A stretch of 64,000 nt of DNA, taken from Escherichia coli (lineage in GTDB: Bacteria; Pseudomonadota; Gammaproteobacteria; Enterobacterales; Enterobacteriaceae). The translations under genes and the position numbers were made by a program. Of the stretch, positions 17,998 to 18,180 are shown one piece after another; position 1 is the first letter of the stretch; each line of letters begins with the position of its first letter. The notes under the pieces are model-generated. The model was not told where the DNA came from. It saw only the letters and a list, made by a program, of their open reading frames with translations, and searched no databases. Where the stretch lies: assembly GCF_003334405.1 (NCBI RefSeq), contig NZ_QOWM01000001.1; one strand, written 5' to 3'.

Positions 17998-18180
17998 TTG
18001 TAGGCCGGATAAGGCGTTCACGCCGCATCCGGCAACAGGAGCCAAATGCCGGATGCAACGCTGGCGCGTTTTATCCGGCCTACAATAAGCTCAACATACT
18101 GATTTGTATGGTTTTGTAGGCCGGATAAGGCGTTCAAGCCGCATCCGGCGACAGGAACCAAATGCCGGATGCGTCTCTGG
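17998..18180. repeat. BIME cluster of about four REP elements
   Basis: alternating-orientation copies of gtaggccggataaggcgttcacgccgcatccggc between convergent mglC and preA. Confidence 0.8.

Follow-up and report, generated by a model that had tools for sequence, protein, structure and literature searches.

REP156, a BIME-2-type array of 1.5 tandem modules between the convergent genes mglC and preA of Escherichia coli, with an inferred origin and 3'-UTR action

We analysed a 64-kb stretch of E. coli DNA, referred to throughout as the window, and are confident that REP156, a BIME-2-type array of 1.5 tandem 116-bp modules, lies in the gap between its convergent genes mglC and preA; we infer for it an origin and an action in the 3' UTR. 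Work on REPs and BIMEs goes back to the 1980s and 1990s. The mglC/preA array is an already catalogued, routine cluster of REPs, the most frequent repeated hairpin sequence of the genome, and, since it is already listed, has little importance as an object. Only two points about it are mildly new, namely a displaced terminator and a rich series of natural alleles.

Location and identity of the array

The window was compared with K-12 MG1655, to which it is 99.98% identical in reverse orientation over positions 1994-26684, with greater divergence beyond 35055. The mglC ORF (16930-17940, + strand) and the preA ORF (18183-19424, - strand; stop codon 18183-18185) converge on a gap of 242 bp at 17941-18182. 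Both are the annotated genes at this locus in all 5,426 complete E. coli genomes, and the K-12 annotation is concordant. In K-12, REP156 is listed as 'Convergent, preA/mglC' at 2236535-2236684 (supplementary table, bioRxiv 10.64898/2026.03.23.713779). These coordinates map to window 17999-18148 and correspond to the three intact REPs of the gap. As the copy of NC_000913.3 used here has no annotated REP features, the REP number was taken from the preprint's supplementary table.

Anatomy of the array

Three REPs in the gap are intact, and a fourth unit is a Z2 remnant that has lost 13 nt internally; the orientations of the units alternate strictly. REP 1 (18000-18034, - strand) is of Y type and matches the Y consensus at all 35 positions, while differing at one position from the Y half of the Rfam naRNA4 consensus. 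It reads TGCC...CTAC on the - strand, with GTAG at 18000-18003 on the + strand, and its hairpin folds at -22 to -23 kcal/mol (z about -5). A tail-to-tail S-like linker of 12 nt (ACAGGAGCCAAA, 18035-18046), which aligns with the naRNA4 linker, leads to REP 2 (18047-18083, + strand). This unit is of Z2 type, with CTAC at 18080-18083 and a hairpin of -20.5 kcal/mol (z -4.1). It departs from the Z2 consensus at five of 37 positions, four of these mismatches forming two compensatory pairs.

REP 2 is followed by a locus-specific head-to-head linker of 32 nt (18084-18115). The 44-nt junction that includes this linker was found in 2,824 of the 5,426 complete genomes, where its median copy number is one. 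REP 3 (18116-18150, - strand) is again of Y type, with two mismatches in 35 positions, GTAG at 18116-18119 on the + strand and a hairpin of -20 to -21 kcal/mol. Beyond it, a second 12-nt S-like linker (ACAGGAACCAAA, 18151-18162) is followed by a truncated terminal Z2 (18163-18186, + strand), which is made up of the tail arm TGCCGGATGCG and the head remnant TTTTAC and overlaps the preA stop codon.

From 18163 the truncated unit reads TGCCGGATGCGTCTCTGG and then TTTTAC. It is unable to fold alone and lacks the palindromic stem-loop of a REP. The preliminary description had proposed at least four alternating units in the gap. Their alternation was confirmed but the count was too high: because the fourth unit consists only of a tail arm and a head remnant, the array has three intact REPs plus a remnant. 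Its beginning also had to be moved. The array is built on a direct repeat of 88 nt (17977-18064 and 18093-18180), 89% identical and with a period of 116, the left flank of which (17977-17999) is an earlier copy of the right part of the head-to-head linker. The repeated block therefore begins 21 nt to the left of position 17998, where the cluster had been said to start.

Folding of the whole gap gave z-scores of -9.1 on the + strand and -7.4 on the - strand. The Y-S-Z2 module (17996-18090, + strand) has an alternative fold as a single hairpin of about 40 bp, at -55.6 kcal/mol versus about -43 kcal/mol for two REP hairpins. This long hairpin is a potential substrate for double-stranded RNase.

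Family membership

A BIME-2 element is made of Z2 and Y REPs joined tail to tail by a short S linker and repeated in tandem; its linkers vary in length and sequence, and its copy number differs between strains (PMC3333891). The gap array has every BIME-2 feature that we tested. Y and Z2 REPs are present and Z1 is absent. The tail-to-tail linkers at 18035-18046 and 18151-18162 both align to the naRNA4/REP325 linker. The module is present in 1.5 tandem copies here and in other numbers in other strains. The GTAG/CTAC foot of the stem was found in all three intact REPs, and GTAG is also present at 35067-35070, in another REP of the window.

The Rfam model naRNA4 (RF02564, CssrE), which describes one Y-linker-Z2 unit of REP325 (PMC4550694), matched at full length on the + strand at 18003-18080 with 88.3 bits, well above its gathering score of 59.5. 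All 77 positions were matched, with both hairpins and the linker aligned. A second match, of 38 bits over 18119-18182, falls below threshold, its Z2 half having collapsed. Membership of naRNA4 at REP156 means 'a Y-S-Z2 module' only.

The closest comparison is with REP325, the BIME-2 archetype between yjdM and yjdN, which likewise consists of Y and Z2 REPs in alternating orientation arranged as tandem modules. Its linker ACGGTGCCGAC is similar to the tail-to-tail linker ACAGGAGCCAAA of REP156. REP325 however has six modules as against 1.5, a period of 100 nt as against 116 nt, and a head-to-head linker of 17 nt that is unrelated to the 32-nt one of REP156. The Z2 stems differ by a compensatory change (CCGGAT/ATCCGG in REP156, CCTGAT/ATCAGG in REP325). 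Unlike in REP325, the last Z2 of REP156 is truncated and touches a stop codon, and REP156 lies between convergent genes whereas REP325 lies between tandem ones. BIME-1 elements (Z1-L-Y with an IHF site) also carry REPs in inverted orientation, but their long L motif contrasts with the short 12-nt linker between the tail arms of REP156, and the Z1 consensus has no match anywhere in the 64-kb window.

These assignments exceed what chance would give. A strict REP pattern matched four times in the window against 0.21 expected from composition-matched Markov-2 controls. The intact REPs of the array, 35-37 nt long, each have an internal AA/GC mismatch and folding energies of -20 to -23 kcal/mol (z -4 to -5.4), and the seven REP copies of the window have a common 13-pair stem with compensatory changes at four pairs. 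An 801-nt query comprising the gap and its gene flanks found a median of at least 38 places per E. coli genome, the extra places being attributed to REPs. Each of the four REP loci in the window is extragenic, following a stop codon and preceding the next gene. The preliminary description had named a lack of similarity to REP copies elsewhere in the genome as evidence that would count against it. Such similarity was found, both in the multiple genomic places and in the naRNA4 matches, and that objection fails because the pattern, fold, covariation and multi-copy evidence exceed chance. Taken together with the REP156 listing and the consensus matches, the naRNA4 result bears out the description of the gap as a BIME of alternating REPs.

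Other REP sites and side observations in the window

A covariance scan of the 64 kb with naRNA4 at a relaxed threshold returned four REP loci, all of them named earlier, and no others. The three loci outside the mglC/preA gap had been described as single REPs at further convergent junctions. All three are real REP sites, though only those at cdd and bglX are single, and only yohF/yohD is convergent.

Between cdd and sanA, which are co-directional and form a tandem junction, a single Y REP (21914-21948, - strand; 3 mismatches, 31.4 bits, -26.6 kcal/mol) lies 6 nt past the cdd stop codon and 108 nt before sanA begins. Its head tetranucleotide is degenerate (GCAA). The convergent yohF/yohD gap holds a decayed two-REP module of 84 bp, K-12 REP154 (28216-28299). 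Its Z2 unit (28216-28252, - strand) lies tail to tail with its Y unit (28265-28299, + strand; 7 mismatches to the consensus), 12 nt apart. REP154 scored 49.8 bits with naRNA4 on the - strand (E 8e-6), but folds no better than shuffled sequence (z about -1.2), and the GTAG head is degenerate in both units. Finally, a single Y REP (35067-35101, - strand; 2 mismatches) lies between the co-directional genes bglX and osmF and corresponds to K-12 REP152, which is listed as 'Tandem'.

The Y unit of REP154 starts 5 nt past the yohD stop codon. Together with the cdd REP, 6 nt past its own stop, it falls in the class of REPs within 15 nt of a stop codon, for which stalling of terminating ribosomes has been reported.

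To the left of the bglX REP, a 41-nt segment (35019-35059) that K-12 lacks is bordered by CGCCCTTTG direct repeats. It includes the REP tail arm TGCCTGATG and occurs in 1,286 of the 5,426 genomes. K-12 identity falls from 99.4% to 97.4% exactly at this segment. With the linker of the K-12 nupX/yeiI BIME it shares only ACTTGCTGAAnTT. As a candidate BIME-1 L motif with an IHF site, the segment is, judged by eye, a poor fit to the IHF consensus.

The nupX/yeiI BIME itself is missing from this strain. At window 1994-2009, 264 bp of K-12 are absent (K-12 segment 24691-24954), a loss that takes in the whole BIME and shortens both convergent genes at their ends (nupX by ~59 nt, yeiI by ~99 nt). A 10-nt microhomology (ACGGGCGCTG) marks the junction, across which each ORF now continues into the other (819-2138, + strand; 1838-2983, - strand). 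Among the matches listed from the 5,426 complete genomes, including the top-ranked one, none has this junction in one piece.

Two further RNA families were recorded. OrzO-P, a type I antitoxin RNA in Rfam, matched twice at full length on the - strand, at 50245-50320 (99.9 bits) and at 50855-50928 (88.8 bits), and the window has about 894 bp extra relative to K-12 at 50425-51318. These observations suggest that the zor-orz locus is duplicated in the window. The Rfam Peptidase-S11 RNA motif was found at 29729-29809 (+ strand, 72.8 bits), immediately upstream of the pbpG ORF (29805-30746).

Natural alleles of the array

The mglC/preA gap is highly variable in Escherichia. The Z2-linker-Y junction is present in 2,824 of the 5,426 complete E. 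coli genomes (52%), a few of which have 2-3 copies. A compact 70-bp allele without any intact REP is carried by a further large class (2,413 of 5,426 genomes, 44%). It consists of a perfect 12-bp hairpin formed from two tail arms, an S linker and the Z2 remnant, and looks like the product of a deletion of the centre of the Z2-linker-Y palindrome.

Other strains show other arrangements of the same parts. Strain 21B8 has a single truncated module with one intact REP, and E69 has Z2-l-Y-S-remnant. In APEC E956 the order is short palindrome-S-Z2-l-Z2-l-Y-S-remnant, while the E. albertii allele is Y-S-Z2-l-remnant. The longest form, Z2-l-Y-S-Z2-l-Y-S-Z2 in SCPM-O-B-8794, has five intact REPs. Common natural alleles have zero, one, three or five intact REPs, and the Z2 remnant was found in every Escherichia allele examined. 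The suggestion that the cluster is a recombination hotspot is well supported at REP156, where at least seven different array architectures occur in Escherichia. Effects on mRNA stability and a role as an insertion hotspot, also named in the preliminary description, are known for REPs as a family and may apply to this locus.

The SCPM-O-B-8794 allele also explains the unit next to preA. Its terminal Z2 is full length, and the CTAC of this unit provides the preA stop, which reads TAG on the coding strand. In the alignment, the terminal Z2 of all other alleles lacks 13 nt. This 13-nt loss identifies the supposed fourth REP as an internally deleted Z2 whose head remnant lies over the stop codon.

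The terminator in related genera

A pattern scan for the mglC 3' end returned at least 120 loci. Among the loci listed, only those of Escherichia, of Citrobacter and of two metagenome-assembled genomes have preA next to mglC. About 12 Citrobacter species share the synteny, with an mglC/preA gap of 56-61 bp that reads AAAAAGCCCGGTGCAG...CTGCACCGGGCTTTTTT, and none of these gaps contains a REP. They hold a textbook bidirectional intrinsic terminator (AAAAAGCCCGGTGCAGCGCAATCTGCACCGGGCTTTTTT). This occupies the same place between the same two stop codons as the REP array and, like the array, offers a GC-rich hairpin that can be read on both strands. It is however a single perfect hairpin, with an A-run on one side and a T-run on the other, and has no further copies in the genome, whereas REP156 has no T-runs and cannot serve as a canonical Rho-independent terminator.

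A strict hairpin-plus-T-run terminator lies within 120 nt of the mglC stop at 92 of 116 Enterobacterales loci, and several further loci have a terminator with a single stem mismatch. Salmonella is represented in the scan by a single locus, whose sequence ends 29 nt past mglC. In the Escherichia gaps no intrinsic terminator was found, the sole consensus match being a 6-pair misfold inside Z2, and apart from the REP array no strong structure lies between the two stops. Leclercia adecarboxylata provides a contrasting case. In its first 130 nt after mglC the intrinsic terminator is kept and is followed by a genus-specific pair of REP-like palindromes, whereas the terminator of Escherichia is gone.

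On the simplest reading of these comparisons, the Escherichia lineage would have lost the terminator and acquired a BIME in its place. A fuller scenario can be proposed, in which a BIME-2 replaced the ancestral bidirectional terminator with the GTAG head of Z2 on the preA stop, and would now form the 3' ends of both operons through Rho and a block to exonucleases. We put this forward tentatively and think it somewhat more likely to be wrong than right. We also considered whether the preA stop codon was derived from a REP. This was ruled out, as Citrobacter, which has no REP there, has the same stop context (TTACAACGTTA). Because this context is common to Escherichia and Citrobacter, the REP array came to abut a preA stop that already existed.

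Proposed origin and action in the 3' UTR

From what is known of the family, REPs would be seeded and spread by TnpA_REP/RAYT, which would require a GTAG head and a stem mismatch. The substrate of TnpA_REP has a GTAG head, a stem mismatch and an adjoining inverted REP with a cleavage site between C and T (PMC3333891). As a candidate substrate, REP156 shows the first two of these features in each Y unit and CTAC in Z2. No TnpA_REP gene lies within the 64-kb window. Once settled, an array would expand and contract through recombination among the direct and inverted repeats that it contains, or through slippage between them, as both its alleles and the behaviour of the family suggest.

The array lies in the 3' UTR of both mglBAC and preTA, and these two convergent operons would both be transcribed into it. 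By analogy with other REPs, its most likely role would be that of a shared 3'-UTR stem-loop block, combining mRNA protection with partial Rho-linked termination. Exonucleases working 3'-to-5' would be stopped by the REP hairpins of both 3' UTRs. Immediately beyond the preA stop codon, where the RNA is no longer translated, Rho would act with the hairpins to set the 3' ends and to limit read-through into the opposing gene.

Several published observations bear on this reading. REP325 is both an mRNA stabiliser and a partly Rho-dependent terminator, and the presence of REPs between convergent genes correlates with both genes being more highly expressed (bioRxiv 10.64898/2026.03.23.713779). An in vitro-selected Rho-binding segment from the same study (K-12 2236464-2236532, preA sense, 'NusG plus') maps to window 18151-18219 on the - strand. 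By these coordinates, mapped from K-12, it spans the Z2 remnant and ends 3 nt from REP156. Against a strong role, genes that end in a REP did not in general differ from others in mRNA half-life in that study, and REP fragments with 2-4 hairpins were insensitive to bicyclomycin (bioRxiv 10.64898/2026.03.23.713779). A full-text literature search found no paper on extragenic palindromes at mglC and no 3'-end mapping or half-life data for mglC or preA, and a search for 3'-end-mapping studies of bidirectional terminators yielded nothing applicable to the locus.

Alternative roles

We rated four other accounts of the array (selfishness, a gyrase site, a translational brake and a naRNA4/HU role) below the 3'-UTR reading. 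The strongest of these rivals is that REP156 is a selfish or neutral repeat without host function, tolerated between two stop codons and eroded by deletions. The array may indeed be close to neutral, and intact REPs are dispensable at mglC/preA, as 44% of complete E. coli genomes have none there. Extreme structural polymorphism at the locus speaks for this reading. The resemblance of the 70-bp allele to a deletion of the palindrome centre points the same way, as does the decay of the terminal Z2 and likewise of the REPs at yohF/yohD and cdd. However, none of the Escherichia alleles seen retains the ancestral terminator, and the 3' ends must be made in some other way. A stable hairpin persists even in the compact allele, and the Rho-binding segment adjoins the array. 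We regard a lack of any host function as rather unlikely, while giving it more credit than the remaining alternatives.

A second possibility is that the array is a gyrase site, BIME-2 DNA being bound and cleaved by DNA gyrase to relieve positive supercoils between convergent units. REP156 does lie between convergent operons, and gyrase cleavage is over-represented in BIME-2 elements, mostly in Y REPs and independently of transcription (PMC6379681). Cleavage is nevertheless found in only a subset of BIME-2 elements. The gyrase Topo-seq supplements have no entry for mglC, preA or yeiA, and the text does not name the locus. REP156 is moreover small, at 1.5 modules, and absent from many strains. 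A role as a gyrase site is improbable.

Third, the array might act as a translational brake on preA, a hairpin that starts within 15 nt of the stop codon stalling terminating ribosomes and triggering tmRNA tagging, as has been reported for REPs near stop codons. The terminal Z2 of SCPM-O-B-8794 begins right at the preA stop codon, and in the window the Z2 remnant can pair with the tail arm of REP 3 over 10 bp (-18.9 kcal/mol), in a hairpin starting 9 nt past the UAA. According to the summary in PMC12306157, only REPs less than 16 nt from a stop act in this way; the REPs after the stop codons of cdd (6 nt) and yohD (5 nt) are within this distance. In a 76-nt context, by contrast, the minimum free energy fold is REP 3's own hairpin, which starts 32 nt from the stop, and not the alternative pairing. 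We consider a brake on preA still less probable than a gyrase site.

Fourth, the Y-S-Z2 unit could be a nucleoid-associated RNA gene, processed to a naRNA4-like RNA that with HU bridges DNA cruciforms and condenses the chromosome. The full-length RF02564 match above the gathering score lies on the strand transcribed from mglC, and Qian et al. (2015), from whose Y-linker-Z2 unit of 77 nt the model derives, reported transcription of most REPs (PMC4550694). The Rfam model fits any BIME-2 module, however, and the match is thus a sign of homology and not of function. The nucleoid role is disputed even for REP325/naRNA4, whose deletion or overexpression is reported to leave nucleoid volume unchanged, and REP-REP contacts do not appear in Hi-C data (bioRxiv 10.64898/2026.03.23.713779). 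Half of E. coli strains lack a Y-S-Z2 unit at mglC/preA. A nucleoid role for this locus is very improbable.

A chance palindrome or an ordinary intrinsic terminator taken for a REP, for which the richness of the region in hairpins speaks and nothing else, can be dismissed, being refuted by the REP pattern, the naRNA4 match, the consensus matches and the many genomic places, with no T-run after any stem.

Significance

REP156 has modest value as a case study, in which terminator-bearing relatives can be set against REP-only Escherichia and natural alleles are common. These alleles are suited to the still-debated role of REPs at 3' ends, where they may act as stabiliser, Rho-linked terminator, translation brake or gyrase site, or do nothing. 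If a BIME-2 did replace the ancestral terminator, the natural allelic series, from five intact REPs through three and one to a collapsed 25-nt palindrome found in about 44% of strains, would provide a ready test of whether REPs replace terminators and tune two convergent operons.
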